Of a DNA stretch of 64,000 nucleotides, positions 10,727-24,845 are shown one piece after another (position 1 is the first letter of the stretch; the number at the start of each line of letters is the position of its first letter). The translations under genes and the position numbers were made by a program. The notes beneath the pieces were generated by a model. It saw only the letters and a program-made list of their open reading frames with translations, was not told where the DNA came from and did no database searches. The stretch comes from Elusimicrobiota bacterium (lineage in GTDB: Bacteria; Elusimicrobiota; Elusimicrobia; UBA1565; UBA9628), in NCBI GenBank assembly GCA_016234805.1, contig JACRNU010000030.1, positions 27,406 to 91,405 on the forward strand, in the 5' to 3' direction.

Positions 10727-11497
10727 ATGCCCTTTTTGGAGGTTCGCTTGATCCCGAGCCCGATTCACAAAGTCCTTTTGATTTTCCAGAATTGCAGCGC
10801 GCGGTTTCTATTGATGGGCGGTCAGGCGTGCATTTTATACGGCGCGGCGGAATTTAGCCGCGATCTGGACCTCGCCATCGGCATCGATGAGCCGAACCTT
10901 GGAAGAATACGGGATGCGCTCAACGAACTCCGCGCCGAGAGCGTTTTCGCGCCTCCCCTGGATGCCGGCGCGTTGGAGCGCGGGCATGCCTGCCATTTTC
11001 GCTGTCATACTCCTGAGACGGAAGGCCTCCGAATCGACATCATGACCCGCATGCGCGGGTGCGATGATTTCGCCGCGTTGTGGGAGCGGCGCACGATGGT
11101 CCATCTTCCGGAGATCGGGGAGATGGGCGTGCTGTCCTTGCCGGATCTGATAAGAGCCAAGAAGACTCAGCGTGAGAAAGACTGGCCCATGGTCCGTCGG
11201 CTGATTGAAGCCGATATTTTGCAGGCCCAAGACAGGGCGACGGAAAAGCAGGTCCAGTTCTGGTTCGAGGAGTGCCGGACGCCGTCGGAGCTGATGCGTT
11301 TGGCCAAAGTATGGCCTGCCCTGTGTCGATCCGTATCGACCCGACGGAGGCTTCTCGCCCATGCCCTCTCCGGAGACGGCGTGGCCCTTGAAAAAAGCCT
11401 CCGGGAAGAAGAGGCATCTGAAAAGGATAGGGATCGACAGTATTGGAGTCCATTAAAGATGGAACTTGAAAAATGGCGCCATGATAGAAGGCCATGA
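10727..11497 (+). CDS. Hypothetical nucleotidyltransferase-fold protein in a locally lower-GC stretch.
   Basis: LLMGGQACILYGAAEFSRDLDLAI resembles the minimal nucleotidyltransferase GS...D.D motif. Local GC is visibly lower than the flanks. The start is uncertain. Confidence 0.4.
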   Translation: MPFLEVRLIPSPIHKVLLIFQNCSARFLLMGGQACILYGAAEFSRDLDLAIGIDEPNLGRIRDALNELRAESVFAPPLDAGALERGHACHFRCHTPETEGLRIDIMTRMRGCDDFAALWERRTMVHLPEIGEMGVLSLPDLIRAKKTQREKDWPMVRRLIEADILQAQDRATEKQVQFWFEECRTPSELMRLAKVWPALCRSVSTRRRLLAHALSGDGVALEKSLREEEASEKDRDRQYWSPLKMELEKWRHDRRP

Positions 11498-13067
11498 CGG
11501 CAAGGCCTCCGGCCCTCTCTGCCTCTCGTGCCTTCCCAGCCTGACCGACGCAGTCGTTGCGGCTCTGTCCAGCGCGGCCCTGGGCCTTGCGGTCGCGGTC
11601 ATGCGGACCCTCTCCCGAGTCCCGGCATCGGACGACCTCCTGCTTCCAAGGAGGGCCTTCTACCCGTTCTTCGCGTTCTTCATCAAGGCCCAGGCCTCCC
11701 CAGCGGTCCGGGGCGCGCTCTCCTGGCTGGCTCTGGCCTTGACGCTCGCCAGCCTCCTGCTGGTCCTGTGGCGCCTGTGGGCCGGGTTCAAGCGCGGCAG
11801 GTCCGGCGCCATGGGCGTGTCCAGGGGCCGCGCGCCATGGCTTGCCGCTGTCGGTCTCTTGGCCGGAAGCCTGGCCTTCGCCGCCTTGGCCAGGTCCTCG
11901 ATCGCGACTTTCCTCGACATGCTCCAGAACGCGTGGTTCCTTCCCGAGAGTCTCGATATCCGCGAGCCCCCGCTCGCCTTCGTCCTGTCAGCCGTGCCCG
12001 TGTTCCTGGCTGTGGCCGCGATCCTGAGTCTGGCTGAGACAGCGTTCTCATCCGGTCCCTGGAAGACGGCCAGGCCGTGGAAAACGGCCTGCGGCTGGAC
12101 CACGGCCTTGGCCGCGTGCTGGCTGGCCGCGATGATCATGGCTCAAGGCTACGGCGCCGGGCTGAGCCTTGCCCAGTCCTCGGGAACCTCGGTGGGAACG
12201 CCTGGGAGCGCCTTCATCCTGGTGCTCACCGAGAAGGGAATCCCGGACTATTCAGTGCGCGAAGCGCCTTTGGCCGTGCCTGGACCGGTCGAGCGCGCTG
12301 AGGACGACCTAGCAGGGCTGGAGAGGTTCAGCCGGCTTCGGTCCCTGCAGAGGCTCCCGGCTCTGAGGCACGCCTATACGGGCCGTGCCGCTCTGGCGGA
12401 CGCGGACGGCATGCGGGCCTCGGCTTTGGCCGCCCTCGAGGCCGGGGACCCGTTGGCCGGGCTCCTGCTCTTGGGGAGCTTGTCTCACGCTCCCGCCAAC
12501 AAGGACAACCTGAGGATGCTCGAGACCCTGGCGGATGAGAAGCGCTGGCGGGTCGGTCCCCATGCCGCCTTCCTCCTGTCCGCTGCGTTCGCCAGGTTCG
12601 GCGTCGCTGACCGGGCCGGGTATTGGCTCGGCCGCGCTTCACAGGGCGATGCCGGCATCCCGGCCGGGCTTCTGGTGTCGCCCGATTCGGCCAAGCCTTC
12701 GAAGGTCCGGGGCAGGTTCGTGTTCGAAGGCGCGGCCGTCCCTGTCAGCGGAAGCCGCCAGAGAGGCGGAAGCGGTAAGGGAGAAGGTCTGCGGGTCGCG
12801 CTTTATTCCAGGGACCGCGCCATCCCCGCGGATCTCTCAGCCATGACCCTCGCGGCTTCCACGGTCCTCGACGCCAAGGGAGGTTTCGAGTTCCGCGACA
12901 TGCCTGGCGGCGACTATTCCCTGGCGCTCCTGCTCGGCACGGCCGAGTCTTCGACCGGACCCTTCCGGGCCGGCCCGGCCCGGGGCAGCCTCCGCGTGAG
13001 CGGCCACAAGGGCGACATCCGCGTCGAGGGCAAGGACGTGTCCTTGGCCCCCATCTTCCTGCGATGA
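11466..13067 (+). CDS. Hypothetical membrane protein upstream of, and overlapping, an ABC transporter operon.
   Basis: 533-aa ORF with several hydrophobic helices (LSWLALALTLASLLLVLW, LAFVLSAVPVFLAVAAILSLA) and a C-terminal soluble region. 4-nt overlap with the downstream ABC ATPase gene. Confidence 0.5.
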   Translation: MKNGAMIEGHDGKASGPLCLSCLPSLTDAVVAALSSAALGLAVAVMRTLSRVPASDDLLLPRRAFYPFFAFFIKAQASPAVRGALSWLALALTLASLLLVLWRLWAGFKRGRSGAMGVSRGRAPWLAAVGLLAGSLAFAALARSSIATFLDMLQNAWFLPESLDIREPPLAFVLSAVPVFLAVAAILSLAETAFSSGPWKTARPWKTACGWTTALAACWLAAMIMAQGYGAGLSLAQSSGTSVGTPGSAFILVLTEKGIPDYSVREAPLAVPGPVERAEDDLAGLERFSRLRSLQRLPALRHAYTGRAALADADGMRASALAALEAGDPLAGLLLLGSLSHAPANKDNLRMLETLADEKRWRVGPHAAFLLSAAFARFGVADRAGYWLGRASQGDAGIPAGLLVSPDSAKPSKVRGRFVFEGAAVPVSGSRQRGGSGKGEGLRVALYSRDRAIPADLSAMTLAASTVLDAKGGFEFRDMPGGDYSLALLLGTAESSTGPFRAGPARGSLRVSGHKGDIRVEGKDVSLAPIFLR

Positions 13068-13816
13068 TCGAGGTCCGCGGACTCAGCAAGCGCTTCTCCC
13101 CTGTCCAGGGTCTGCGCGGCATGGTCGGGGGGCTCTTTCGCGCCGCGCCGCAGGCCTCCGTGACCGCCCTGGACGAGGTGAGCTTTAGCGTGGGCAAGGG
13201 CGAGGTCTTCGGCCTGGTCGGCCCGAATGGAGCGGGCAAGACCACCCTGATCAAGGTCCTCGCCACCCTTGTCCTGCCTGATTCGGGGGATGCGGCCGTG
13301 GCCGGCCACGACATCCTGGCTGATCCTTGCCGAGTGAAGGCATCCATGGGGTTGGTGACCGGGGATGAGCGCAGTTTCTACTGGCGGTTGACGGGTTGGC
13401 AGAACCTCGAGTTCTTCGGCGCTTTCCAAGGATTGCCGGTTGGCAGGGTTAGGGAGCGGGTCCGGGGACTGGGACCGCTGTTGGATGGGGATGCTCTCGA
13501 CAGGAGGGTGGCTGAGTATTCGGCCGGGATGCGCCAGCGTCTCGGCCTCTTGAGGGCTCTGCTCCATGATCCTGAGGTCCTTTTGCTCGACGAACCCACG
13601 AAGAGCATCGACCCCGCTGGAGCGGCCATGGTGGGAAGGTTCGTCCGCGACGAGCTTGCTGGAAGGCAGGGCAAGTCCGTCCTGTTCGCCACGCACAATA
13701 TGGCCGAGGCCGAGGCTGTCTGCGGCCGTGTCGGGCTTCTTGTCCAAGGCAGGCTGGTCGCGCAAGGCGCGCCCCACGACATCAGGGAACGTCCGGAGCT
13801 TCTTTCCCATGGCTAA
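13064..13816 (+). CDS. ABC transporter ATP-binding protein.
   Basis: Walker A GPNGAGKTT, ABC signature YSAGMRQRLGL, Walker B LLLDEPT, and an H-loop. Confidence 0.9.
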   Translation: MIEVRGLSKRFSPVQGLRGMVGGLFRAAPQASVTALDEVSFSVGKGEVFGLVGPNGAGKTTLIKVLATLVLPDSGDAAVAGHDILADPCRVKASMGLVTGDERSFYWRLTGWQNLEFFGAFQGLPVGRVRERVRGLGPLLDGDALDRRVAEYSAGMRQRLGLLRALLHDPEVLLLDEPTKSIDPAGAAMVGRFVRDELAGRQGKSVLFATHNMAEAEAVCGRVGLLVQGRLVAQGAPHDIRERPELLSHG

Positions 13817-14612
13817 GACCGCGGCGTACCTGCGCAAGGCCCTGGGCGACGCGCGCAGCTACCGCCTGGGCTTCGGGTTGGCGCTTTTGAGCACTGTTTT
13901 CTCCGTGGTCTCGTATTTCTTCATTGACAAGCTCTTCGGCAGGCAGGTCGCGCCCCATCTCGCGCCGTTCGGGGTCAGCTACTTCTCCTACGTCCTGGTG
14001 GGGATGATGGCCAGCACTTACCTTGGAGGGGCTTTGGGCGCGGTCTCGAGCATGATGAGGGAAGAGCAGGTCTGGGGGACCTTCGAGGCCCTCCTGGCCA
14101 CGCCGACCGGGATATTCACCATCGCGTGCGCCATGGCTTCCTGGAACCTCATCATGGCCTCCCTGGAGACCGCGGTCTATGTCCTGGCCGGGGTCTTCGT
14201 CTTCGGAGTGGATTTCAGCAGCGTCAACCTGCCTGCCGCGCTGATCATCCTGTCCCTGGCCATGGTCTCTTTCTCGGCCATGGGGATCATCTCCGCTGCC
14301 TTCATCCTGGCCTTCAAGCGCGGCGACCCTCTCTCCATCATGATGAACCTCGGGATGGAGATACTGGGGGGGGTGTTCTTTCCGGTCACGATCCTTCCGG
14401 ATTGGCTCAAGGCTTTGTCATACCTTTTCCCCACCACCTACGCGGTCCGGTCCCTGGAGCTGGCGATCTACAGGGGCGCGGGGCTAGCGGACCTCCGGCA
14501 CGATGTGGCCGTGCTCGCCGTTCTGTCCGCGGTCTTGGTCCCCATGGCCTACCGGAGCCTGGGGGCGGCATTAGATTACGCCCGTAGGAAAGGCACGCTG
14601 GCGCAGTATTGA
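13809..14612 (+). CDS. ABC-2 type transporter permease.
   Basis: MAKTAAYLRKALGDARSYR followed by six predicted TM helices typical of the ABC-2 family. Start overlaps the ATPase gene by 8 nt. Confidence 0.7.
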   Translation: MAKTAAYLRKALGDARSYRLGFGLALLSTVFSVVSYFFIDKLFGRQVAPHLAPFGVSYFSYVLVGMMASTYLGGALGAVSSMMREEQVWGTFEALLATPTGIFTIACAMASWNLIMASLETAVYVLAGVFVFGVDFSSVNLPAALIILSLAMVSFSAMGIISAAFILAFKRGDPLSIMMNLGMEILGGVFFPVTILPDWLKALSYLFPTTYAVRSLELAIYRGAGLADLRHDVAVLAVLSAVLVPMAYRSLGAALDYARRKGTLAQY

Positions 14613-14619
14613 GCGCGGA

Positions 14620-15123
14620 TCAGAGGCGCTTCTCCATCGTGGACTCGTCTCCGGAACTCTCGACGACGTGAAAGCCCATCTCCCGATAGAGCGCGAGGGC
14701 TGCCCAAGCCCTGCGGTTCACCGACAGCGTTACGGCCTCGCCCTTCCGAGTCTTGACGTGGTCGAGGATCGCGGCGCAAAGGCTCCGGCCCAGGCCCTGG
14801 TGTCTGTAGAGCGGCTTGACCCAGACCCCGTCTATTCCCCATCGACCGCCGCCGAGCAGGGTGACGGTGGCCGTCCCGATGACCGTATCGCGCGTCAGCG
14901 CGACGAACCGGGCGCCTCCGGCGAGCTCGCCCTTGAGGCCTTCGGCGAATTCAGCTTGGGTCATCCCGGGCGCGCTGTTGAGGCGGCACAGCTCCGCGGC
15001 GTCGTCCATGGTGGCCGGCCTTACGACTGCGCGTTCCCGCAGCAGGAGCGTCCGTATGAGCCTGCGGCATCCCGATGCCTCCAGCAGGAACGATGCGACC
15101 CTGGTCGGCGGCCAAGGCGTCAC
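14620..15123 (-). CDS. GNAT family N-acetyltransferase.
   Basis: VWVKPLYRHQGLGRSLCAAILDHV is an acetyl-CoA binding motif (R/Q-x-x-G-x-G/A). Confidence 0.75.
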   Translation of the reverse strand: MTPWPPTRVASFLLEASGCRRLIRTLLLRERAVVRPATMDDAAELCRLNSAPGMTQAEFAEGLKGELAGGARFVALTRDTVIGTATVTLLGGGRWGIDGVWVKPLYRHQGLGRSLCAAILDHVKTRKGEAVTLSVNRRAWAALALYREMGFHVVESSGDESTMEKRL

Positions 15124-15150: not shown

Positions 15151-15834
15151 TCATCGGCTGCGCCAGACCAGCGTATCAAGCTCCTGGAGCTCAGCATCGA
15201 GCTCCAGCCAGGGCTGGCTGTCGAAAATGGAGCGCTGGCGCGCGCAGAAATAGGCCACCCGGATAATGCGCGGCTTGGCGATGAGCGACCGCCGGATGTT
15301 CTCCACGACCGCGCCGAAGGTCTTGGGCCCAAAAGGGTCGGAGAAGAAGAAGGCCGTGCCTTCCGACACATCGAACGATGCGGCATCGGCGCGGACGAAC
15401 TCCCCCCCCCCCCCCCTGAAGGTCCGCTTGTTCTCCATGGCGATCCGGAACAAGTCTTCGTTCAACTCGACTCCCACCGCCCTCTTCGGACGGAGCGTGG
15501 CTGCAAGAAAGACGGCCCTGCCCTGCCCGCATCCGAGGTCAATAAAGACGTCCTCTGGCCCCAGGGCGAGGAAGGCCAGGATTTTGTCCGCGGCGGCGTA
15601 GGAGATGGGATCGTACGGCTGCATGTCGCGGAATCCGCTCTCGTCGGCGTTGCGTCGCCACGGCAGGTTTGTCCTGATGCCGAGTCCCCGGTCGCGCCGA
15701 TGCTCCGCCACGACGACGGCGAAGTCCCGCGTCGTGTCCAGCAGATGCTGTCCCAGGCCCGATAGGAAGCGCCGGAAACTCTGCAAGAGCTTGAACGCCA
15801 GCGAATCCTTGACCCTCGCGCGGAGCGTCAGCAT
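15151..15834 (-). CDS. Class I SAM-dependent methyltransferase containing a 15-nt poly-C tract (GGGGG in the protein).
   Basis: VFIDLGCGQGRAVFLAA (motif I). The last gene of the minus-strand cluster; its start overlaps the upstream fusion gene by 7 nt. Confidence 0.65.
   Translation of the reverse strand: MLTLRARVKDSLAFKLLQSFRRFLSGLGQHLLDTTRDFAVVVAEHRRDRGLGIRTNLPWRRNADESGFRDMQPYDPISYAAADKILAFLALGPEDVFIDLGCGQGRAVFLAATLRPKRAVGVELNEDLFRIAMENKRTFRGGGGEFVRADAASFDVSEGTAFFFSDPFGPKTFGAVVENIRRSLIAKPRIIRVAYFCARQRSIFDSQPWLELDAELQELDTLVWRSR
15402..15416. repeat. Homopolymeric tract C15 (G15 on the coding strand) inside a methyltransferase CDS.
   Basis: Direct reading of gaactCCCCCCCCCCCCCCCtgaag; it encodes RGGGGEF. 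Confidence 0.8.
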
Positions 15835-18146
15835 GGGGCGCGAAGCTCCTTTTCCGGCGGCCGCCAGTCCGGGATGACGCCGATGCCGAAGCCCTTCTGA
15901 TCCCAGTCCTCCACGATCTCCTCGACGGGATGGGCGGCCTTGATCTCCCGCCAGAGCCTGGGTGATTCCTGGTCGCCGGTCGAGGGGTCGGGCACGATGT
16001 CGTGGAAGGCTATTATGCCTCCTTCCCGGACCAGGGGGGAGTAACGCTCAAAGTCGGATCTGACCGCGTCATAGGCGTGGTCGCCGTCGATGAAAAGGAA
16101 ATCCGCCTTCCTGCCGCCCAGCAGTTCCCGGACCCGTGCCAGGGTCCGGTCGCTCCCGGAGTCCGAGCGGACGAGCCTGATCGTCTGTCCCTTGAGCCCG
16201 ATCGAACGGTAGAGCGGGATCCTCGCGGCCGAGTATCCTTCGCCGCCTCCGAAGAAGGGCCCTGGGAGGTCCACGCTGACGAGGAGGGCGTCCTTTGCCG
16301 CGGCTCGGGAGAATAGGAACAGGGTCCCTCCGAGCTCGGTCCCGATCTCGACGATCACCTCGGGCTGGCGCGCCTTCAGGAGTTCGACGAGACGGATGAT
16401 CTCGCTCCTCACTTGAGCCGGCTGGAGGAGGCCCTCGAGTCCGTCGAAGGCGAGATCAGCCAGCCTGCCGGGGTCCCAGGTCAGGTCCGCGGCTTGGATG
16501 TCCCGCAGGTGAAGGGGGAGCTTGAGCAGGCGTTTGGCCGCGGCCGCGAGCCCGCCGGCGGAGCCGGGGCCGCGTTCGCGGACGACCCTGTCCCGCCAGC
16601 GACGTTCGAGTCGGTCGACGCCTTCCTCGCCGAGCAGGTCCGAGCTCTTGCTGCCGTAGTGGATGACCCAGACGTTGATGAGGGCGTAGAGCTTCCAGCC
16701 CAGGCGCTTCACGCGCTGGGTCAGGTCGATCCCTTCGTGACCGAGAAAGTATCTGCGGTCGAACTCCCCTGCCTCGGCCAGGGCGGACCGACGCGCCAGG
16801 AGGAACCCGCCTTCGAGATAGTCCACCTTGGCGAAGAAGAAGCCGTCCTTGAACCGGCCGCGCCAACGGGCGATGGTGTCGAGGATCCGATTCTCGCACC
16901 AGGAGTTGGGGAAGGCCTTGTTGGCGCGAAGGCAGAGGTCCCAAAGCACGCGCCGCCAGCCGGTCAGCACGACGCCGACCTCCCAGGCCTCATCCTTGTC
17001 CTCCGGCCGCTCGATCTCCCGGGGCATGGCGGCTCCCGCTTCGGGATGCTCCTCCATGAACCGCACGGACCTGGCCAGGGTGTCGGGCAGCATTTCCGTG
17101 TCCGGGTTGAGGAAAAGGACGAATTCTCCCCTGGCCAGGGCCACGGCCTGGTTGTGTCCGGAGCCGTAGCCCACGTTCTCTCGATTCTCGACTACTCGGA
17201 CTTCCGGGTATTTCTCCCGGACCATGGCGGCGGAGCCGTCGGAGGATGCGTTGTCCACCACGATGACCTCGAGGTCCAGGCCTCCCGCGTGCCGGAACAC
17301 GGAGGCGAGGCATTTGTCCAGGTAGTCCCTGACATTCCAGTTGACGATGGAGACCGTGAGCTTGAGGGCGGGACCGGCCTGGACCCTTGGGGCTGCAACC
17401 GGGATCCCCCGAAGAGTCCTCCCGAGGCGGAAGGCCAGCCGGTGGAGGGGATGAGGGATCGCGGACACCAGGAGCCCGAGGACGCGGTCCATGGGCTTGT
17501 CCAACGGAGTCCTGTCGCCCTTCCTGATCCGGGCCGCCACCCTGCCGAGGATCTCGGATTCCGTGACCTGGTCAAGGCCGTCCCCGCTGTCGGCTTTGAG
17601 GGTGAAGGTCCATCCGCCTTGGCCGGCCGAGGCGCCGACGATGCGGTGGGCGGCCATCCTGTCGTCCTTGGAGTAGAGGACGATGTCCCCTCTCCTGAGT
17701 CCGGCGGGCCCGGCCGGCCTGACTTCCAGCGTGTCGCCGTCCTTGATGATGGGGGACATGCTTGAGCCCCGCGCCTCGAGCCGGACCGAGGCGCCGCGTT
17801 CGAGCAGGGAGGCCGCGACCGAGGCCAGGTCAACGGCCCCGACGTTCAGGCCGTCCAGGCGGTTCTCAGCCACGCTCCCGCATCCTTTGTGTTCCGGAAG
17901 GAAAACTCCTGGACCGGGATCTCCCGGCAGAGCCTCGCGCACGATCCCAGAGCGGCCTCCATCAGCTTCTTGTCCCACCAGGGAGCGAAGGTGCAGCGCA
18001 GCAGGGCTGCCGCGGCCCCCGATGGGGACAGGGAGGCCAGGCCGTTGCTTTTTGCCTGCCGGAGGATGAAGAGCTTCTTGAGGGGGACGGCTCTGTTGGC
18101 CGCGAGCCGGTCCTCTCCGGGCCAAGGCGTGCCGCACAGCAGCCAT
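15828..18146 (-). CDS. Three-domain fusion protein: S24/S26 (LexA/signal-peptidase-like, Ser-His type) peptidase domain, a family-2 glycosyltransferase, and a class I SAM methyltransferase (TylF/cephalosporin-hydroxylase-like). True start probably internal.
   Basis: N-terminal: GSSMSPIIKDGDTLEV...RRGDIVLYS...AAHRIVG, an SPase I/LexA-like fold with His in place of the general-base Lys. Middle: KLTVSIVNWNVRDYLDKCLASVF...VIVVDNASSDGS...FLNPDTEM, a GT2 DXD-type domain. C-terminal: VIVEIGTELGGTLFLFS...FLFIDGDHAYDAVRSDFE...GGIIAFHDI, a methyltransferase. The first ~100 codons of the track ORF overlap the upstream kinase gene. Confidence 0.65.
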   Translation of the reverse strand: MAAVRHALARRGPARGQQSRPPQEALHPPAGKKQRPGLPVPIGGRGSPAALHLRSLVGQEADGGRSGIVREALPGDPGPGVFLPEHKGCGSVAENRLDGLNVGAVDLASVAASLLERGASVRLEARGSSMSPIIKDGDTLEVRPAGPAGLRRGDIVLYSKDDRMAAHRIVGASAGQGGWTFTLKADSGDGLDQVTESEILGRVAARIRKGDRTPLDKPMDRVLGLLVSAIPHPLHRLAFRLGRTLRGIPVAAPRVQAGPALKLTVSIVNWNVRDYLDKCLASVFRHAGGLDLEVIVVDNASSDGSAAMVREKYPEVRVVENRENVGYGSGHNQAVALARGEFVLFLNPDTEMLPDTLARSVRFMEEHPEAGAAMPREIERPEDKDEAWEVGVVLTGWRRVLWDLCLRANKAFPNSWCENRILDTIARWRGRFKDGFFFAKVDYLEGGFLLARRSALAEAGEFDRRYFLGHEGIDLTQRVKRLGWKLYALINVWVIHYGSKSSDLLGEEGVDRLERRWRDRVVRERGPGSAGGLAAAAKRLLKLPLHLRDIQAADLTWDPGRLADLAFDGLEGLLQPAQVRSEIIRLVELLKARQPEVIVEIGTELGGTLFLFSRAAAKDALLVSVDLPGPFFGGGEGYSAARIPLYRSIGLKGQTIRLVRSDSGSDRTLARVRELLGGRKADFLFIDGDHAYDAVRSDFERYSPLVREGGIIAFHDIVPDPSTGDQESPRLWREIKAAHPVEEIVEDWDQKGFGIGVIPDWRPPEKELRAPC

Positions 18147-18736
18147 CGCGAGCCGGACCTGCGCAGCACGATCCGGTCATCGCTCAACACCGGGATCTCC
18201 GGGCCGGACCCCCTCAGCAGGCGGGTCATGGTGGTCTTTCCTGCCCCGGAACTGCCGGCCAGGGCCACGCCCCCTTCCCCGACCGCGAGCCCGGCGGCGT
18301 GCAGGAGCAGGCCCGAGGACCCGAGGAGCGTCACGGTGAGCTGGCGGCTGATCAGGTCAAGGGTTTGGATGAGGGATGCTCCCGGAGCCTGACGCTGCAT
18401 GAGCAGGCGGTAGCGCCTGACCTTCCGGCCGTTCCGGATGCCCTTCCCTTCCGGGATCAGCACCCCGCAGGGCGGCTTGTTGCGCTGGGATGAGATGCGC
18501 AGGACCTCCTGTCCACGGCACGCGGTGACGCGCCAGAACACGGGGGTGTCGTAGACGACTCTGTCGCCGGCTCCGGCCTCGGCATGGCCCGGGGATATGG
18601 TCACGACCGCGTCCGGGTATTTATTCGTGACGAACTTGAGGTAGGCCGACATCCTGCTGTCGGTCCCGAGTTCGGGGATCCAGCGGCTCCGGAACTCCAC
18701 GACCGGACCCCCAAGTTCCAGCCTGAGGCTGGGCAC
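17846..18736 (-). CDS. HPr kinase/phosphorylase C-terminal-domain-like P-loop kinase (HprK-related).
   Basis: LLLHAAGLAVGEGGVALAGSSGAGKTTMTRLL is the Walker A region, in the arrangement seen in HprK C-terminal domains and in HprK-like kinases of RiPP clusters. Confidence 0.65.
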   Translation of the reverse strand: MPSLRLELGGPVVEFRSRWIPELGTDSRMSAYLKFVTNKYPDAVVTISPGHAEAGAGDRVVYDTPVFWRVTACRGQEVLRISSQRNKPPCGVLIPEGKGIRNGRKVRRYRLLMQRQAPGASLIQTLDLISRQLTVTLLGSSGLLLHAAGLAVGEGGVALAGSSGAGKTTMTRLLRGSGPEIPVLSDDRIVLRRSGSRWLLCGTPWPGEDRLAANRAVPLKKLFILRQAKSNGLASLSPSGAAAALLRCTFAPWWDKKLMEAALGSCARLCREIPVQEFSFRNTKDAGAWLRTAWTA

Positions 18737-18758: not shown

Positions 18759-18923
18759 CTAGCTTCTGCTGTAGGTGACGCGGCATCGGGAACACGCCCT
18801 GCCTGCGCAGCGCGAGGTGTTCGTGCTGCGCGCCGCGGACCTGCAGGCGGTGAGGATCTGCTCCTCGAGCGCGAGCTTGACCTGGACCATGGCGGGCTTC
18901 TGATACGGCTTCTTCTGGCTCAT
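18759..18923 (-). CDS. Candidate RiPP precursor peptide (54 aa): helical leader plus a Cys-rich, Ser/Arg-rich C-terminal core ending in Ser.
   Basis: Sequence MSQKKPYQKPAMVQVKLALEEQILTACRSAARSTNTSRCAGRACSRCRVTYSRS. The frame is taken from the tail of track ORF 18759..19277 and is too short to be called alone; my own reading of the raw text here differs by one base. An AGGAGA Shine-Dalgarno (18931-18936) sits 7 nt upstream of the ATG at 18923, which is 11 nt downstream of the radical SAM/SPASM stop. Confidence 0.5.
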   Translation of the reverse strand: MSQKKPYQKPAMVQVKLALEEQILTACRSAARSTNTSRCAGRACSRCRVTYSRS

Positions 18924-18934
18924 CTGCGGGTCTC

Positions 18935-20005
18935 CTATTGTTGCGTTTGTGCCGGTTCCTTGGAGCCGGCTTTCTTCCCGGCGAGGGCCTGGTGGCGCAG
19001 ACCGGCCTTGCGGCAAAGGGGTTCCACGATCCCTCCCAGGGACCGGTGCTCCAGCATGGCGTAGCCTGAGCACTGCTCGCAAAGAGGCGCTTTGTCGCAA
19101 GCAAGGCACTTTGGGGAAAGGCTTTCCTCCATCACGCGCCGGAAAAGGGGCATGGCTTCGCGCCACCCCGCTGAGAAGGAGCCCTTCCTGATGTCGTAGG
19201 CGAGGTTCGGGAAGGAATCGCAGGGCTGGAGCATGCCGTAGGGGTTGATGGTGAACACGATGGCGCCTGCCCCGCACAGGAGCAAGTCGCGGGCCGGGAC
19301 TTGGGAAAGCTCCCTGAGGAGTTCGCCGTATTCCTGCTTGGACTTCTCATCCGCGAGGTCCAGGGCCACGGTCTCCTCGGGGCTCAGCCGCAGTCCCCGG
19401 TTGTCGAAGCCTTCGTCGAGCCGGGGCACGAGGATGGTGTCGTAGGCGAGGCTGCGTCCCGGGTGCACGGCTTCGGCGGTGCCGCGCATGGCGGTCAGCT
19501 CGTGCTTGTTGAGGGACATCACCATGGTCTTGAGCGCGACATCCACTCCCCGCTCCTTCAATAGTCCGGCCGCGGCCAGGGAGCGGTCCAGGGAGCCCGG
19601 GCTGCGGGTGATCCGGTCATGGGTCGCGGCCGTGGCGCCGTAGATCGTGATCTCGACTCCGAGCGGCGGGTAATCGGCGAAGAGGTCCGCGAGCTCCGGG
19701 GTCAGGAGGGTGCCGTTGGTGAAGACCTCGATGAACATCCCTCGTCGGATCGCATGGAGGTAGATGTCCCGGAAGTCGGGCCGGAGCAGAGGCTCCCCGC
19801 CTGTCAGGAGAAGCCATAGGCAGCCGGCGTCCGCGACCTCGTCGAGGATGCGCCGGACCTCATCGAGGGAGAGCTCCTGGTCCCGCGCGGCGCGGTCTTC
19901 GGCCGGGATGCTGCAGTAGCAGTGGACGCAGTCCTGGTTGCAGCGGTAGGTCAGGGCCAGGGAGCCGAGATAGGGCAGCCGCAGGGACATGGCCTTCTCA
20001 TCCAT
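18935..20005 (-). CDS. Radical SAM/SPASM domain peptide-modifying enzyme.
   Basis: LTYRCNQDCVHCY is a CxxxCxxC radical SAM motif; the C-terminal SPASM-type Cys cluster is CLACDKAPLCEQCSGYA. Start placed at an internal Met (MDEK); the track ORF extends to 20056 and overlaps the PqqD gene. Confidence 0.75.
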   Translation of the reverse strand: MDEKAMSLRLPYLGSLALTYRCNQDCVHCYCSIPAEDRAARDQELSLDEVRRILDEVADAGCLWLLLTGGEPLLRPDFRDIYLHAIRRGMFIEVFTNGTLLTPELADLFADYPPLGVEITIYGATAATHDRITRSPGSLDRSLAAAGLLKERGVDVALKTMVMSLNKHELTAMRGTAEAVHPGRSLAYDTILVPRLDEGFDNRGLRLSPEETVALDLADEKSKQEYGELLRELSQVPARDLLLCGAGAIVFTINPYGMLQPCDSFPNLAYDIRKGSFSAGWREAMPLFRRVMEESLSPKCLACDKAPLCEQCSGYAMLEHRSLGGIVEPLCRKAGLRHQALAGKKAGSKEPAQTQQ

Positions 20006-20042
20006 GACGCGGCGGAACTCGCCGAACCCGGCTTGGGGGATC

Positions 20043-20330
20043 TTAGCGCAGGGCATGGCTCTTCACCAGGTCCTTGGCGGCGAGGGCTCTCAGGAAATCC
20101 AGGGTGTCTTCCTCGGCGATCTGAGCAGCCACCTCGAAGCGCTCGCGGATGAGCTCCGCCGCCTGCGCCGCCGTACGGCGCCCATCCAGGGCGTCCCAGA
20201 GGAGGGCGCCGGTCTCGTTGAGCCGCCAGACCACGGCCTCATCCTGGTCCACGAGCACGGCCTCGTCTTCGATGAGCTTGAAGAGGATGTCCGGGTTGCG
20301 GACGGGCCGGTCCTGAAGAGAGAGCTTCAT
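20043..20330 (-). CDS. PqqD-family protein (RiPP recognition element-like peptide chaperone), copy 1.
   Basis: 95 aa: ...FKLIEDEAVLVDQDEAVVWRLNETGALLWDALDGRRTAAQAAELIRERF..., a PqqD fold signature. 4-nt overlap with the upstream B12-rSAM gene. Confidence 0.8.
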   Translation of the reverse strand: MKLSLQDRPVRNPDILFKLIEDEAVLVDQDEAVVWRLNETGALLWDALDGRRTAAQAAELIRERFEVAAQIAEEDTLDFLRALAAKDLVKSHALR

Positions 20331-23197
20331 CGGGACACCATGGCGTCAAGGGCGGTGGCCGCGGCTCGGTAGAGCTCCCGGCCGGCCTTGCCGTAGCGGC
20401 GCTCGGCAAGGAGCCCGCGTCCCAGCCGCCAGTGCAGGTCGGCTGAGTCGAGCCCCAGGCGCCTGGCTTTCCTGAAGTGGGAGAGGGCTTCGCCGGCTTT
20501 CCCCTGCCGCTCGGCGATGAGCCCCAGTTGGAAGAATGCGCCTGCTGAATCAGGGGAGAGGTCCAGGACCGCGCGGAAATGAGAGGCCGCTTCCTCCGGA
20601 GAACCTCCGGAGGCGAGCAGCACGGCTCCCAACCCGAAATGAGCGTCCTCGATCGCGGGGGAAAGCTCCAGGGCCTTCCTGAACAGGCGTTCGGCTTCGG
20701 TCCAGTCTTTACGTGCGCGGTTCACGTTGCCAAGGCCGCAGAGCGCGAGGGCGTTAGCCGGGTCGAGCTTCAAGGCGTCCTTGTACGCTTTCTCGGCTCC
20801 GGCCCGATCATCCATGAACTCCAGGACCGGTCCTGGGTTGTTGTAGGCGGTCCTGTAGGACGGGTCGAGACCGACCGCCTTGCGATAGGAGAGCCTGGCC
20901 GAATCGATTTCTCCCTTCTCGAGGCCCGCAAGGGCCGCGAGGTAATGCCGGGCGGCGGGCGGCACGGACCAATCCGAGGACTGAAGGCGGGCCTTGAGCT
21001 CGTCTCCCAGGTGCTTGAACCGCAGGGGGGTGAAGCCGCCCTCCACGGAATACGAGATGGTCGTGCATTCCGGTTTGAGGCCCAGTCCGGCAAGCCGCTG
21101 GGAAAGGCGCTCCGGAGCGATCCAGGGCTCGCGGTCCGGAGCGAGGTCGTCCGTGACTTTCCTGGTCAGCAGGTAATCCAGATCGATGTCGAGCAGGACC
21201 GGGCCCGGGAACTTGGGCAGGCCGGCCAGTTCGCAGACGATGGTCTTCCTGCCCGCGAGTTCCGTGACCAGCAGGTCTCCTTGCGCGCGCACGAGCGTTC
21301 GCGGCCGGGCAAGCCTCTTGAGCGTGCGAAGGACGTGCCTGCGCTCCTTATGGCTGGACAGGGTCCCGTCCGGCACCACCCAGTAGAACTCGGACACGAT
21401 CCCATCCTGCATGGCAGGACAAACGAAATTGCCGATGGTGACCAGGCGCTCCTTCGGGGTCTCGACCGGATTCCACAGGGGCCGGCTCGCGAGCAGGCTG
21501 TCCAATTCGGCCTTGGTGCCGGCTTCGAGGATCTGGGTGATGTCCTTCTCCGGGACCCAGCCGAAATCGATGTGCGCGTCGAGGTGGATGAGGGGCAGTC
21601 CCGAGAGCCCGAGCTTGCGCCATACCCCGAGGACCTCGTTGTGGTCTTCCACGAGATGGGTGGACCTCCGGTGCATCAGGCCTTTGCAGAGCTGTTCCAG
21701 CCGGCCGGCCTCCATGGGGCTCATCGGGCCTCTTGCCTGGCGGAACTCGGTGAAGAACTTGAACGGCAGGCCTCCGTCCCTGTCGAATTCCAGCCCCCAC
21801 CGTGCCGGGTCGTCGTAGACTGGGCACTTGGGCGTCAGATAGTACGTGTTGAAGGCGGGATGGTCGATGGAGGCGCGGTTCTCGGAGATGAAAGCCACGG
21901 TCTCCAACCCTTCCTCGACGGTCTCTCCCGGCAGACCGAAGATGGTCTGGAGGCCCACCGCGACTCCGGCTGCGTGACAGTCCCTGATGACCCTTTCCGA
22001 GACCGCCTGCTTGTTCCCTTTGAGCACGAGGCCGCAGACCCTGTCCGAGGCGGACTCGAAACCGAAATTGACCTGCTTGCAGCCCGCTTCCCTGGCCAGG
22101 TCGAAGATGTCCCGGGTGAAGCCGTTGTCGAGCCTGGCCATGGTCCACCAGGGCACGGCGAAATCCTCCTGGATGAGCCTCGTCGAGACCTCGCGCATCT
22201 GGCTCGGGGACATGGTGGCGTTGGAGACCAGCAGGAGCGCCGGCTTGTGGCGTTCCGCAAGGGCCTTGAAGTCCCTCGCCACCAGGTCCGGCGATTTGGC
22301 CCGGTAGGACGGCTTGGGCAGGGGCAGGTCCACGCAGTAGGCGCAGCGGTTCCAGTAGCAGCCCCGGGAGGTCTCGCAGGTCAGGGCAAGGCCTCCTTGC
22401 CTGCTGCTTGCGTAGCTCGCGAGCGGAAGTCCTTCGAAGTCGGGAGTGGGCAGGAGGTCGAGGTCCTCCTCGCTGGTGACGGGGCTGCGGATCCAGGCGC
22501 CGTTGGCATGGCGGATCAGGTTGGGCACGGTCGAGACAGGACCCCGGGACTCGAGCGCCGAGACCAGGCCCAGGAGGGGGGTCTCGCCCTCGCCGGTCAC
22601 GACGAAGTCGAAGAGCGCCGCCCAATCAGGGCGGGCCATGATCTCCTCCGCGAAGAGGGTTGCCCATTGGCCGCCGAGGGCGATCTTCACCTCAGGGGAC
22701 CGCCGCTTGAGCAGGCGGCAAAGCGTCAGGCCGGCCAAGGCTTGGGAAGGGGAGACGATCGAAAGGCCGATGAGCGATGGCGTGCCTGAGAGGATTCCCT
22801 TGGCCCCCGGGTCGGCCAGGAAGAACCGCAGGAATGTGTTCTCGTCCTCATCGTCCAGATACCTGAAAAGGATGCCGCTGGAAAGGATCCGTTCGATGAA
22901 GTAGAAGGAGGAATTGGTCCTGTTGTCGTACGGGCTGCCGTATTGGTAGTCTCCGGCGTTCTGCGGCAGGAGGGATGAGTAGTAGAGCCCTTGGGCCTTC
23001 CCGTCAAAGAGCTCGTTCATCCGCCGCCGCGCCGTGTCCGCGGAACCGTCCCAGGAGTCCCGGTAGGCGAGGTTGAGGTCGAGCTGCGAGACGCCGATCC
23101 CCCTGGACTTCAGGAAGCCGGCCAGGGCCGGCGTTCCCAGCGGCGGGGCGTCGTATTCGTAGTCGGGAGGGATGACAAGGCGGACTTCCGGCATCAA
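20327..23197 (-). CDS. B12-binding radical SAM protein with a C-terminal TPR repeat domain (956 aa).
   Basis: N-terminal B12-binding region (IGLSIVSPSQALAGLTLCRLLKRRSPEVKIALGG). Radical SAM core with a CETSRGCYWNRCAYC cysteine motif. C-terminal ~250 aa with TPR-like repeats (AYNNPGPVLEFMDDRAGAEKAYKDALKLDP..., HFGLGAVLLASGG...). Confidence 0.75.
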   Translation of the reverse strand: MMPEVRLVIPPDYEYDAPPLGTPALAGFLKSRGIGVSQLDLNLAYRDSWDGSADTARRRMNELFDGKAQGLYYSSLLPQNAGDYQYGSPYDNRTNSSFYFIERILSSGILFRYLDDEDENTFLRFFLADPGAKGILSGTPSLIGLSIVSPSQALAGLTLCRLLKRRSPEVKIALGGQWATLFAEEIMARPDWAALFDFVVTGEGETPLLGLVSALESRGPVSTVPNLIRHANGAWIRSPVTSEEDLDLLPTPDFEGLPLASYASSRQGGLALTCETSRGCYWNRCAYCVDLPLPKPSYRAKSPDLVARDFKALAERHKPALLLVSNATMSPSQMREVSTRLIQEDFAVPWWTMARLDNGFTRDIFDLAREAGCKQVNFGFESASDRVCGLVLKGNKQAVSERVIRDCHAAGVAVGLQTIFGLPGETVEEGLETVAFISENRASIDHPAFNTYYLTPKCPVYDDPARWGLEFDRDGGLPFKFFTEFRQARGPMSPMEAGRLEQLCKGLMHRRSTHLVEDHNEVLGVWRKLGLSGLPLIHLDAHIDFGWVPEKDITQILEAGTKAELDSLLASRPLWNPVETPKERLVTIGNFVCPAMQDGIVSEFYWVVPDGTLSSHKERRHVLRTLKRLARPRTLVRAQGDLLVTELAGRKTIVCELAGLPKFPGPVLLDIDLDYLLTRKVTDDLAPDREPWIAPERLSQRLAGLGLKPECTTISYSVEGGFTPLRFKHLGDELKARLQSSDWSVPPAARHYLAALAGLEKGEIDSARLSYRKAVGLDPSYRTAYNNPGPVLEFMDDRAGAEKAYKDALKLDPANALALCGLGNVNRARKDWTEAERLFRKALELSPAIEDAHFGLGAVLLASGGSPEEAASHFRAVLDLSPDSAGAFFQLGLIAERQGKAGEALSHFRKARRLGLDSADLHWRLGRGLLAERRYGKAGRELYRAAATALDAMVSR

Positions 23198-23484
23198 TTA
23201 GCGTGCACGCTTTTTATGGTCTCGAACTGCGTCAGGATGGTCCCAAGATCCGCCTCGACCTCGGTGCCGGTCGTCGCGTACTCCTCCAGCAGGGTCGTCT
23301 TGATCTGCCCCACGGTGCGCTGTCCGTCGATGAGTTCCCAGACCCGGGCCGCGGTGTCGTTCAAGGTGAAGATGCTCCTCAGGTCGCCCACCTTCTCCCG
23401 GATGGGGACGAGGATGTACTCATCCGCGATGCGGCGGCCCACGAAGTCGGGGTTCTTGCTGTAGCGGCGTTCCAATAGTTGCAT
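23194..23484 (-). CDS. PqqD-family protein, copy 2.
   Basis: MQLLERRYSKNPDFVGRRIADEYILVPI...LNDTAARVWELIDGQRTVGQIKTTLLEEYA is a PqqD-like fold. The ATG at 23484 has a GAGGGAG RBS. 4-nt overlap with the downstream B12-rSAM start. Confidence 0.65.
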   Translation of the reverse strand: MQLLERRYSKNPDFVGRRIADEYILVPIREKVGDLRSIFTLNDTAARVWELIDGQRTVGQIKTTLLEEYATTGTEVEADLGTILTQFETIKSVHAN

Positions 23485-23558: not shown

Positions 23559-24779
23559 TCAAAGAGCTGGCGCGATGGCTTCGGCCAAGGCCCGGTAGCC
23601 GGCGGCGTTGAGATGAGGCGCGTCGTAGACGCCGTGGATGAACCTCCTGCGAGCCTCGGCGCGCAGGGAGGGCCTCGCGTCCACGAACCCGCAGCCGGCC
23701 CTCAGGGCGGCCTCGCGCGCCCTTGCGGCGATGAGGTCGCTGCGGCGGCGCACCGCGGCCGCCGGGTAGCGGGACGCCCTGTCGTGATAGGTCTCCACGG
23801 AGACCTCTGGAGAGGCGAGCTCGTAGCACGACAGGGGCGAGGGGATGTAGACCGCCAGGACCCTGGCCCCGGGGAAACGGGACCTCAGGAACCCCAGAGA
23901 TTGCTCGAGGACCCAGACGCCCCGGCGCAGCTCGTCGTCCGTGAGCTCGAGGGACGGGCCTTGCGACGCCTCGGGCAGGAAGGACTCGGTCTGGCCGAGC
24001 AGGACGCGGTTCACGGGCTCGGCGGCGGGGACCTCGGCCGCCTCCGAGGTCCGTCCGTCAGCGGCCCCGGGCAGCCTGCGCCAGGCGCTGCGCAGCAGGG
24101 TCATGCCGAACCTCCAGAAGACCAGGTTCCTGCCGAATCCGCCTCGCAGGGCCGCCCTGGAGCCGTCATGGCGTTCCACGAACTCCGCCAGCATGAAGCG
24201 CCTGAAATAGGAAGGGTCGTAGAGCCTGCCTTGGTCGTAACGCGGGTCGTAGCTCTCCCGGAGATCGGTGATGTTGTCGTCGAGTTCGTTGCCCTCGTAG
24301 AAGTAGGCGAGCACGACCCCGGGCTCGGCGAGCCTGTAGAACAGGGTGCGGCCGAGGAAGGCGAACGTGCCGGCCGGCTCGGCCGCGAGCCCACCCATGC
24401 TGCCCGCGCCTCCGTAGCCCATGGAGACGACGTCGCGGCCGGTCAGCGCGCGGAGATGAGCCTGGGAGCCGAAGGCCGCCCTGGTCCAGCGGGAGGCGTT
24501 GCGGGCCTCGTCGCCGAGGCCCACGGCGTAGGAGTCCCCCAGGATGAGCACGTAGTCCCTGGGCCTCAGGCCGCGCTTGGTGCTTTGGCACAGGACCTGG
24601 ACGGGCGCGTCCAGCCGCCACGCCAGGCCGTGGGGCAGGAACGCGACCGCGGCCGGGAAGAGGGCGAACTCGACGGCGGCGTAGAGCAGCAGGAGCGCGG
24701 CCAGGGAGAGCCCAGCCTTCGGGGCGAGGGCCTTGAACCGGGCGGGGAGGGTTGCCATGACCGCGGGCTTATCATACAT
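23559..24779 (-). CDS. SGNH/GDSL-type hydrolase with an N-terminal membrane anchor.
   Basis: N-terminal hydrophobic segment (LSLAALLLLYAAVEFALFPAAVAFL), a GDS block (VLILGDSYAVGLGD), and a C-terminal DAPHLN (DxxH) block. The start is uncertain (Met at 24779 or 24758). Confidence 0.55.
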   Translation of the reverse strand: MYDKPAVMATLPARFKALAPKAGLSLAALLLLYAAVEFALFPAAVAFLPHGLAWRLDAPVQVLCQSTKRGLRPRDYVLILGDSYAVGLGDEARNASRWTRAAFGSQAHLRALTGRDVVSMGYGGAGSMGGLAAEPAGTFAFLGRTLFYRLAEPGVVLAYFYEGNELDDNITDLRESYDPRYDQGRLYDPSYFRRFMLAEFVERHDGSRAALRGGFGRNLVFWRFGMTLLRSAWRRLPGAADGRTSEAAEVPAAEPVNRVLLGQTESFLPEASQGPSLELTDDELRRGVWVLEQSLGFLRSRFPGARVLAVYIPSPLSCYELASPEVSVETYHDRASRYPAAAVRRRSDLIAARAREAALRAGCGFVDARPSLRAEARRRFIHGVYDAPHLNAAGYRALAEAIAPAL

Positions 24780-24845
24780 GATATCACGCGGACGGAGCAT
24801 CCCCGTCCCGGCCGCCTTCCGTGAAATGGTATCGTTGGGTCCGGC

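Follow-up and report, generated by a model that had tools for sequence, protein, structure and literature searches.

Several described pathways for peptides made on the ribosome and modified after translation (RiPPs) have parts in common with the locus analyzed here. In enteropeptin biosynthesis, a radical S-adenosylmethionine (rSAM) enzyme links cysteine to the alpha carbon of the adjacent arginine, after which come ornithine formation by an arginase and then a methyltransferase step. In the selidamides, arginase action is followed by GNAT acylation of ornithine (PMC8784127). HPr-kinase homologues phosphorylate the C-terminal serine of linear lasso precursors, after which a nucleotidyltransferase can add sugar to the phosphate (PMC8498205), and YxxPxL is a conserved leader motif of lasso precursors (PMC10368454). 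The subject of this work is a 54-residue open reading frame (ORF) on the minus strand of a 64,000-nucleotide stretch of an Elusimicrobiota bacterium assembly (GCA_016234805.1, contig JACRNU010000030.1, positions 27,406 to 91,405; this whole stretch is called the window below). The ORF lies between genes for an rSAM/SPASM enzyme and an HprK-like kinase and is very probably the precursor, i.e., the substrate peptide, of a RiPP pathway run by the neighboring genes. The peptide gene is real, under purifying selection and part of a conserved cassette.

18759–18923, minus strand: putative precursor peptide gene, 54 amino acids plus stop (ATG at 18923, TAG at 18759–61), identical to GenBank HZB91_04660
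18931–18936, minus strand: Shine-Dalgarno-like AGGAGA, 7 nt before the ATG at 18923 and overlapping the final two bases of the rSAM/SPASM stop

Direct translation of the minus strand at 18759–18923 gave exactly MSQKKPYQKPAMVQVKLALEEQILTACRSAARSTNTSRCAGRACSRCRVTYSRS followed by the stop codon. A leader of about residues 1–26 contains the motif Y7-x-x-P10-x-M12, and a core of about residues 27–54, CRSAARSTNTSRCAGRACSRCRVTYSRS, carries C27-R28, C44-x2-C47, T50-Y51 and the C-terminal S54. The core holds four Cys, seven Arg and nine Ser/Thr (six Ser and three Thr), has no Asp or Glu, and ends in Ser-Arg-Ser. A preliminary description of this DNA had counted five Cys, six Ser/Thr and six Arg, figures that are corrected here; the x4 and x2 gaps that it gave between Cys residues stand, but its first gap of x12 is x11, so that the spacing reads C-x11-C-x4-C-x2-C. 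Its reading of a Cys-containing 54-residue ORF between the rSAM/SPASM and kinase genes was reproduced exactly on translation, and the position of AGGAGA and the 11 nt from the rSAM/SPASM stop (TAG 18937–18935) to the peptide ATG were likewise read from the sequence. It was also correct that the ORF is the tail of a longer one, namely a same-frame ORF of 172 amino acids with a GTG start (18759–19277), the upstream part of which overlaps the rSAM/SPASM gene in a different frame and results artefactually from the high GC content. Contrary to the earlier statement that it is uncalled, the gene is annotated in GenBank as hypothetical protein HZB91_04660 of an Elusimicrobia metagenome-assembled genome (MAG), with an identical 54-residue product, beside the kinase HZB91_04655.

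The window has a GC content of 66.5%, and overlapping ORFs occur everywhere in it. Since 241 ATG-initiated ORFs of at least 54 amino acids are present, the ORF by itself is unremarkable and the evidence for it is conservation. The GC content at third codon positions (GC3) is 0.91 in the peptide frame, compared with 0.49 and 0.60 in the other two frames and 0.77–0.86 in the neighboring genes. As the high value is confined to the peptide frame, the doubt about the frame expressed in the preliminary description is settled. In a codon comparison with an Elusimicrobia relative (locus L048), the ratio of nonsynonymous to synonymous substitution rates (dN/dS) was 0.14 (dN 0.13, dS 0.95), which together with the GC3 result rules out a frame error. 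Two Omnitrophota copies, L001 and L078, were saturated at synonymous sites (proportion of synonymous differences 0.77) while the proportion of nonsynonymous differences was 0.11. A tblastn search found no second copy of the peptide in the window, a scan for promoters and terminators around the ORF gave nothing on the minus strand, and a Rfam scan of the whole window gave no matches.

The first homologue (P0002, 65% identity) was found by a word-indexed protein search in a low-GC Omnitrophota MAG, and the peptide is conserved between the 66% GC Elusimicrobia genome and low-GC Omnitrophota. A HMMER search with a profile of two peptides against 1.84 billion cluster representatives returned 58 representatives at E < 1e-3, all of 40–75 amino acids, with the consensus KKPYxKPxIxxVKLxxEEAVLxxCK-(about 12)-C-(3-8)-C-(3-5)-GS. 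Y7, P10, C27 and C44 never vary among these matches when aligned, and the residues separating the Cys are hypervariable. A search of 185,579 species genomes with a degenerate DNA pattern built on P-Y-x-K-P...E-[ED]...C matched 113 stretches, all of which encode family members, with no false positives. The hosts belong to about 12 phyla overall: Acidobacteriota form the majority, accompanied by Polyangia and other 'delta-proteobacteria', and further members occur in Nitrospirae, Omnitrophota, Elusimicrobia, Planctomycetes, Chloroflexi, Aminicenantes, Binatia, Armatimonadetes, Methylomirabilis, WOR-3, Fermentibacteria and one Bathyarchaeia bin. Among the 80 genome records with listed titles, 79 are labelled MAGs.

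The family comprises at least 159 distinct peptide sequences of 45–75 amino acids, and its overall consensus is KKPYxKPxIxxVKLxxEEAVLxxC[KR]...C...C...GS. The C-terminal residue is Ser (140) or Thr (12) in 152 of 159 members (96%), and 94 of the 159 end in Gly-Ser. Exactly three Cys are present in 147 of 157 members, and Lys or Arg directly follows the first Cys in 144 of 147. Family-wide conservation in the core is limited to the three Cys, a basic residue that follows the first of them and the C-terminal Ser/Thr, while the residues at -2 and -1 before the first Cys (Cys27) are small throughout. A conserved leader joined to a hypervariable core with conserved modifiable residues is the bipartite pattern typical of RiPP precursors. 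No Pfam or NCBIfam (June 2026) model matched the window ORF or any of the 58 members at E <= 1, known precursor families such as SCIFF included.

Some members deviate from this pattern. A fourth Cys is found in only two peptides, that of the window being one; this residue, Cys39 (18807–18809, minus strand), is Ser in L048 and Val, Ala, Thr or Arg in the other closest relatives. It may have arisen by a recent substitution and could supply a further cross-link or stay as an unpaired thiol. In an Acidobacteriota MAG (L028) the peptide seems to be frameshifted past mid-core relative to the near-identical L042 and L012, a possible pseudogene or sequencing error. At L123 (2890–3054, plus strand) the otherwise invariant Tyr is Trp (RPWQRPQL), and the cassette holds a stand-alone 248-residue PF12640 arginase. 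In a MAG labelled Woesearchaeota (L124, 876–1106, plus strand), a divergent Cys-containing peptide (…KKKWADMEVYRIKLDPQQAVLACC…) without the YxxP motif is set among an rSAM/SPASM gene, an opposite-strand ScmC-like kinase and a PF12640 arginase.

The gene order around the peptide was counted in 8-kb genome tiles, each count taking the loci whose DNA reached far enough on the side concerned. In 85 of 92 loci, the rSAM/SPASM gene immediately precedes the peptide gene on the same strand, and a PqqD gene lies upstream in 69 of 81. Directly downstream is an HprK-like gene (85/90), and an S24-like gene is present in 61 of 80 loci. The fixed cassette, seen in about 110 MAG loci, consists of PqqD, rSAM/SPASM, the peptide, an HprK-like kinase and a Ser/His S26-like peptidase, in most cases joined by an ABC transporter, which accompanies the cassette wherever the DNA extends far enough. 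A typical Acidobacteriota locus (L017) has the order PqqD, rSAM/SPASM, peptide, kinase, peptidase of about 150 amino acids and ABC transporter, and this minimal cassette has no other conserved candidate substrate gene. In the Omnitrophota locus L001, the order is PqqD, B12-rSAM, PF12640 plus tetratricopeptide repeats (TPR), PqqD, rSAM/SPASM, peptide, ScmC-like kinase, S24-GNAT-nucleotidyltransferase, GT2 and ABC transporter. The same core gene order is found in eight metagenome loci. The suggestion in the preliminary description that the ORF encodes a precursor on which the PqqD and rSAM/SPASM pair beside it acts is supported by this synteny and by the leader and core pattern. The ORF and three of its Cys are conserved at the syntenic position, as that suggestion demanded; Cys39 is not. 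The C-terminal Ser, named there as a plausible kinase target, is matched by the Ser/Thr ends across the family. Sactionine/ranthionine-type crosslinks, to which it had also pointed, stay hypothetical; the scans gave no sactipeptide or ranthipeptide model above its cut-off. The cross-phylum family, and two domains described below (an arginase domain in a 956-residue protein and an S26-like peptidase domain in the GT2/methyltransferase protein), had gone unremarked. The genes of the cassette in the window are as follows.

18935–20056, minus strand: rSAM/SPASM enzyme, 373 amino acids (Pfam Radical_SAM, 3e-24)
20043–20330, minus strand: PqqD-family protein 2, 95 amino acids (tblastn matches to the PqqD genes of L001–L003)
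23194–23484, minus strand: PqqD-family protein 1, about 96 amino acids from the ATG at 23484 (Pfam PqqD, 1e-12; 53% identity to the L001 PqqD)
17846–18736, minus strand: HprK-like P-loop kinase, 296 amino acids; start uncertain (GTG 18736 or ATG 18652)
15828–17873, minus strand: peptidase-GT2-methyltransferase fusion; likely start GTG 17873; a longer ORF from 18146 overlaps the kinase gene
about 17397–17861, minus strand: S24/S26-like Ser/His peptidase domain of the fusion (Pfam Peptidase_S24, 1.1e-4, 22.4 bits against a cut-off of 23.3)
about 16587–17363, minus strand: GT2 glycosyltransferase domain of the fusion (Pfam Glycos_transf_2, 7.7e-25)
about 15981–16415, minus strand: CmcI/Methyltransf_24-type O-methyltransferase domain of the fusion (Methyltransf_24, 1.5e-14; RMNT_CmcI, 4.4e-8)
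13064–14612, plus strand: ABC-2 type transporter, with the ATPase at 13064–13816 and the permease at about 13809–14612 (Pfam ABC2_membrane, 1.9e-12)

The rSAM/SPASM enzyme has the CX3CX2C motif at residues 39–46, C-x13-G-x4-C at 261–279, Cx2Cx5Cx2C at 317–329 and C348, the full seven-Cys SPASM pattern. Its NCBIfam matches (AhbD, MftC, NirJ, StsB, PqqE, GeoRSP, ScmE/F) are all far below their cut-offs, and its nearest solved structures in the PDB are BlsE, SkfB and PqqE. The second PqqD protein is presumed to be the leader-binding RiPP recognition element (RRE) for this enzyme, and the first is presumed to be the RRE for the B12-rSAM/arginase protein described below. The ABC-2 transporter, presumed to function in export or immunity, is 41–44% identical to the ABC pairs at the same position in L001 and L003.

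The kinase carries a Walker A motif, GSSGAGKT, at about residues 161–168, and G161, S163, G164, G166, K167 and T169 were invariant in a homologue alignment. NCBIfam matches were below cut-off: HprK_rel_B at 6.5e-9 (35.3 bits compared with 200), ScmC at 22.4 bits compared with 125 and HprK_rel_A at 17 compared with 200. A Pfam-A scan gave no match, the copy scanned seemingly being without the recent PF27840 (ScmC) model, which a precomputed table lists for the identical protein. A sequence search of the PDB returned generic P-loop matches only, so that a fold search was required. With an AlphaFold2 model of the kinase (predicted local distance difference test, pLDDT, 75), all 34 best Foldseek matches in the PDB were phosphoenolpyruvate carboxykinase (PEPCK) or HPr kinase/phosphatase (E up to 0.015; 25 at E <= 0.001), and the kinase is predicted to have an HprK/PEPCK-type fold with a P-loop. 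The predicted phosphorylation of a precursor Ser by this kinase is supported only indirectly, by the Ser/Thr ends of the family and by the precedent of the lasso peptides. At L095, the peptide reads through without a stop into the HprK-like kinase to give a product of about 360 amino acids, which is a genuine fusion of precursor and kinase or else results from faulty assembly.

The peptidase domain matches the archaeal-type signal peptidase model TIGR02228 below its cut-off (6.9e-7). In its homologues, the Ser, Met and Pro of a G-x-S-M-x-P motif and a His are present in 68 of 68 sequences, the Arg of H-R in 67 of 68 and a later Asp in 67 of 67. This Ser/His(/Asp) set resembles that of the endoplasmic reticulum/archaeal type of S26 peptidases. 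The domain is likely to be the leader peptidase.

In the window the cassette is extended by a three-part fusion gene and two accessory genes.

20327–23197, minus strand: fusion protein of 956 amino acids (B12-rSAM, peptide-arginase domain and TPR)
21698–23197, minus strand: B12-binding radical SAM methyltransferase-like part, about residues 1–500 of the fusion (TIGR03975, 3.4e-34, below cut-off; Pfam B12-binding and Radical_SAM)
20972–21673, minus strand: predicted peptide-arginase domain, residues 509–742 (motifs EDHNE at 517, DAHID at 540 and LDIDLDY at 669)
residues 745–956 of the fusion protein: TPR repeats (Pfam TPR)
15151–15834, minus strand: SAM-dependent methyltransferase, 227 amino acids (Pfam DOT1, Methyltransf_31 and Methyltransf_25); accessory tailoring gene
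14620–15123, minus strand: GNAT acyl/acetyltransferase, 167 amino acids (Pfam Acetyltransf_1, 1.3e-13); accessory

The family closest to the B12-rSAM part, TIGR03975, is a family of RiPP C-methyltransferases. By its motifs and homology, the middle domain is predicted to belong to the peptide arginases (PF12640). All six arginase metal ligands are present, the motif residues are invariant in two arginase alignments, and the motifs match the published EEH(N/H)EAF, DXHXD and LDIDLDYFSC with their six metal ligands. The domain itself scores 21.4 bits against PF12640 (3.6e-4; Pfam cut-off 27), and PF12640 is carried by homologues at 37–53% identity to it. A three-sequence arginase profile matched PDB entry 8brp_A (OspR, 'Peptide arginase') with E 1.9e-7, and the three best Foldseek matches of the model (pLDDT 72) were OspR chains (E 1.6e-3). 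By their motifs and folds, the enzymes encoded in the window seem intact.

In the genome tiles, B12-rSAM and arginase occur only with a sub-branch of the peptide family, 'LTACRS...CxxC..T[YF]..S', represented by the window, L001/L103, L003/L063, L048, L078 and L082; L072 and L074 are truncated where the available DNA ends. Cores of the sub-branch contain a mean of 6.45 Arg compared with 1.14 in the other 146 members. The first Cys is followed by Arg in 10 of 11 sub-branch members (C27-R28 in the window; one has C-K), and Arg follows the last Cys in 7 of 11. A T-[YF] pair after the last Cys is conserved in the sub-branch and absent as a family-wide feature. The stand-alone arginase at L123 stands beside a general-type member with three core Arg. 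A GNAT gene is also found in L001, L002, L072 and L074, and the enzyme may acylate ornithine side chains, by analogy with the selidamides.

Phosphorylated lasso peptides (paeninodin, pseudomycoidin and the Bsf peptide) share with this locus a PqqD-type RRE, an HPr-kinase homologue, an ABC transporter, a short precursor ending in Ser and a leader motif of the YxxPxL type. Further likenesses are the Thr at leader position -2 in the sub-branch (LTA|C) and, in relatives, a nucleotidyltransferase (PF14907 in L001) potentially able to attach sugar to the phosphate. The locus differs in having an rSAM/SPASM enzyme and an S26-like peptidase in place of the lasso cyclase and the B2 peptidase, and in having no conserved Asp/Glu as ring acceptor, a residue that lasso cores carry at position 7–9 (the sub-branch mean is 0.18 acidic residues per core). 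Pfam and NCBIfam scans of the cluster proteins found neither an Asn-synthetase-like C protein nor a transglutaminase-like B2 peptidase. With no cyclase, no B2 peptidase and no acidic acceptor, a lasso peptide is ruled out.

Sactipeptides and ranthipeptides (AlbA, SkfB, StsB and SCIFF-type) have in common with the present system a PqqD/RRE and an rSAM/SPASM maturase with two auxiliary-cluster Cys motifs, as well as a short precursor with a leader and conserved core Cys; one of the closest solved structures is SkfB. In these classes, Cys sulfur is joined to the alpha, beta or gamma carbon of an acceptor residue. Their precursors are not related to the present family, which has three Cys, the first followed by a basic residue. 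The rSAM/SPASM enzyme scored 59–85 bits with curated thioether-forming families that have cut-offs of 625–850 (StsB, 85 compared with 625; AlbA, 59 compared with 850). To our knowledge, an obligatory HprK-like kinase, a C-terminal Ser/Thr and an S26-like peptidase are not part of these classes.

Peptide-arginase RiPPs (landornamide, OspR; selidamides, KspR/PhaR; FlmR/OhkR) share a PF12640-type domain beside an Arg-rich core, and the selidamide clusters, like that in the window, hold a GNAT gene together with the arginase. The likeness to enteropeptins lies in the first Cys, almost always followed by Lys/Arg in the peptide family, and in the arginase and methyltransferase of the sub-branch; the enteropeptin arginase belongs to PF00491 and not to PF12640. 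Published arginase-associated precursors fall into the types NHLP, Nif11, SCIFF, 'SCCRRSCN', 'DD(I/V)LF' and 'MGXRRSSE'. The window precursor has none of these published motifs, 'SCCRRSCN' having been compared by motif name only. In the window protein, a B12-rSAM precedes the arginase and TPR follow it, a fusion not found in the arginase literature examined.

Mycofactocin biosynthesis (MftA/B/C/F) resembles the cassette in its PqqD-like chaperone and rSAM/SPASM enzyme (MftC is a top full-length match), in a GT2 that is nearest to MftF and in a conserved precursor C-terminus. The C-terminus of MftA is a conserved Val-Tyr. Here the precursor is longer, with three conserved Cys and a Ser end, and a kinase, a peptidase and an ABC transporter take the place of MftD/E/G. 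Membership was rejected on the scores (MftC, 108 compared with 265; MftF, 54 compared with 280) and on the Ser-Arg-Ser end. The SynChlorMet (ScmC/E/F), HprK-related kinase A/B and GeoRSP systems also link an HprK-like protein to PqqD and rSAM/SPASM genes. They were rejected in turn, as ScmE (70.4), ScmF (73.8) and GeoRSP_rSAM (73.9) scored far under 400 and the kinase reached 17–35 bits with models requiring 125–200. No paper describing these systems was found in the open-access literature searched.

Taken as a RiPP pathway, the cassette would work as follows. The Y-x-x-P-x-[LIM] motif in the leader (about 26 N-terminal residues) would be bound by the PqqD-family protein encoded next to the rSAM/SPASM enzyme, by analogy with lasso leaders. 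The rSAM/SPASM enzyme is then predicted to modify the core at the three conserved Cys, most likely forming Cys-derived thioether links, one of which might join the invariant first Cys to the neighboring basic residue. The HprK-like kinase would phosphorylate the near-universal C-terminal Ser, as its homologues do in phosphorylated lasso peptides, and the S26-like peptidase domain would remove the leader. As the residues at -2 and -1 are small family-wide, the cut is probably just before Cys27. The ABC-2 transporter would export the product or protect the producer. In the sub-branch, the arginase domain could turn some of the seven core Arg into ornithine and the fused B12-rSAM could C-methylate the peptide. 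Further decoration of Ser/Thr, phospho-Ser or ornithine might come from the GT2/O-methyltransferase, the GNAT and the second methyltransferase, and a GT2-added sugar might itself be methylated by the O-methyltransferase.

Other explanations of the peptide were weighed against this pathway. The simplest, that the ORF is a chance product of GC-rich DNA, a non-coding stretch or the tail of the 172-residue low-complexity ORF, gains some credit from the many overlapping ORFs of the window. It is refuted by the comparative data and has practically no chance of being right: the GC3 signal occurs in this frame only, dN/dS is low, the amino acids are conserved across phyla and very different GC contents, and the upstream part of the long ORF overlaps, in a different frame, the 3' end of the conserved rSAM/SPASM gene. 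Small basic proteins with Cys are known, and the gene could encode an unmodified Cys/Arg-rich regulator, chaperone or metal binder that is co-transcribed and is not a substrate. This is highly improbable and effectively excluded by the conservation pattern, since hypervariability between the Cys together with a conserved N-terminal half is unlike a folded functional protein. Its fixed place between the rSAM/SPASM and kinase genes in about 90% of loci, the lack of any other conserved candidate substrate in the minimal cassette of L017 and an Arg content that tracks the presence of arginase also speak against it.

A sacrificial precursor of a small-molecule cofactor, comparable to PqqA for pyrroloquinoline quinone (PQQ) or MftA for mycofactocin, would have its C-terminal residues or one Cys-Lys/Arg unit kept and the rest degraded. 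The PqqD and rSAM/SPASM pair, with full-length matches that include MftC (4.7e-31, aligned over 32–328) and PqqE, would suit such a role, as would the best NCBIfam match of the GT2 domain, the mycofactocin glycosyltransferase MftF (1.2e-14), and the strongly conserved C-terminus, with GS in 94 of 159. These MftC, PqqE and MftF scores are, however, far below cut-off. The three conserved Cys extend over about 20 residues and do not form one site, the intervening core shows the hypervariability of secreted bioactive peptides, and the cassette has a dedicated ABC transporter and no redox partner genes that could be seen. We regard a cofactor precursor as improbable. SPASM enzymes catalyze many reaction types, and the peptide could be a RiPP precursor whose Cys are not thioether donors at all. 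The Cys would then form disulfides, bind metal or be converted (for example to formylglycine or thiazoline-like groups), while the rSAM/SPASM enzyme acts elsewhere, by epimerization, by C-C cross-linking at Thr-Tyr or by C-terminal chemistry. Such a role would agree with an enzyme that fits no thioether-forming family model, with PDB neighbors that are a decarboxylase, SkfB and PqqE, and with the T-[YF] pair of the sub-branch. Yet T-Y is confined to the sub-branch, whereas the Cys belong to the few core positions conserved family-wide with the following basic residue and the C-terminal Ser/Thr, and conserved Cys beside a PqqD and rSAM/SPASM pair are the usual sign of sacti- and ranthipeptides. 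Non-thioether Cys are on balance unlikely, at perhaps one chance in a few.

Several observations weigh against the proposed pathway or parts of it. The best full-length matches of the rSAM/SPASM enzyme are of the MftC and GeoRSP type and not sactisynthases, and as the enzyme is far below every curated cut-off, thioether-forming ones included, its reaction is not readable from homology. S26-type peptidases usually favor small residues at -1 and -3, and the residue at -3 before Cys27 is Leu, which is atypical for these enzymes. A lasso-type spacing rule (Y at -17) would put cleavage before L24 instead of C27. For the sub-branch, the fold match of the arginase model is only moderate (TM about 0.43, pLDDT 72), and some Arg-rich members, e.g., L111, have no arginase within the DNA available. 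BsfK phosphorylates Ser3, so that HPr-kinase homologues of RiPP pathways need not target the C-terminus (PMC10368454). Finally, the system is known from genomes alone, and its producers are uncultured MAGs.

Four ORFs close to the cluster were also recorded. Just upstream of it, paralogous polytopic membrane proteins of about 615 amino acids without a Pfam match are divergently placed at 24846–26705 (plus strand) and 26675–28516 (minus strand). At 11466–13067 (plus strand), immediately before the ABC transporter genes, is a 533-residue ORF with membrane-like segments and no Pfam match. The C-terminal part of a long ORF at 23559–25265 (minus strand) matches GDSL/SGNH hydrolase (3.1e-10); as its 3' end overlaps a 5' extension of the ORF of PqqD-family protein 1, the true starts of both are uncertain.

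Taken singly, the components (PqqD RRE, rSAM/SPASM enzyme, HPr-kinase homologue and peptide arginase) are of familiar types. Neither the curated libraries nor the open-access literature searched yielded a description of the peptide family, of rSAM/SPASM consistently paired with an HprK-like kinase and an S26-like peptidase, or of the B12-rSAM-arginase-TPR fusion. A RiPP cluster that combines rSAM/SPASM with an HprK-like kinase was likewise not described in the papers searched; these were open-access only, and a description elsewhere is possible. It is tentatively proposed, with slightly less than even confidence, that the peptide family, with its cassette of PqqD, rSAM/SPASM enzyme, HprK-like kinase and S26-like peptidase, forms a new RiPP class common in uncultured Acidobacteriota, Myxococcota/Desulfobacterota, Nitrospirota, Omnitrophota, Elusimicrobiota and others. 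Its products would have cross-links at three Cys and a phosphorylated C-terminal Ser, and the sub-branch, with what would be a first arginase-B12-rSAM fusion, would make poly-ornithine, C-methylated and glycosylated products. At present the locus is an attractive and testable genome-mining lead and not yet new chemistry.

If the proposal is true, the compact five-gene cassette would be a ready-made target for genome mining in hosts that are nearly all uncultured, and the consensus provides a simple search handle, a single degenerate DNA pattern having given the 113 matches. A Ser/His signal-peptidase-like enzyme would join the known leader peptidases of RiPP pathways. The few known peptide-arginase pathways, of interest for producing ornithine-containing peptides, would gain a novel type of precursor and a novel fusion architecture, and peptide phosphorylation of the HPr-kinase type would extend beyond the lasso peptides.

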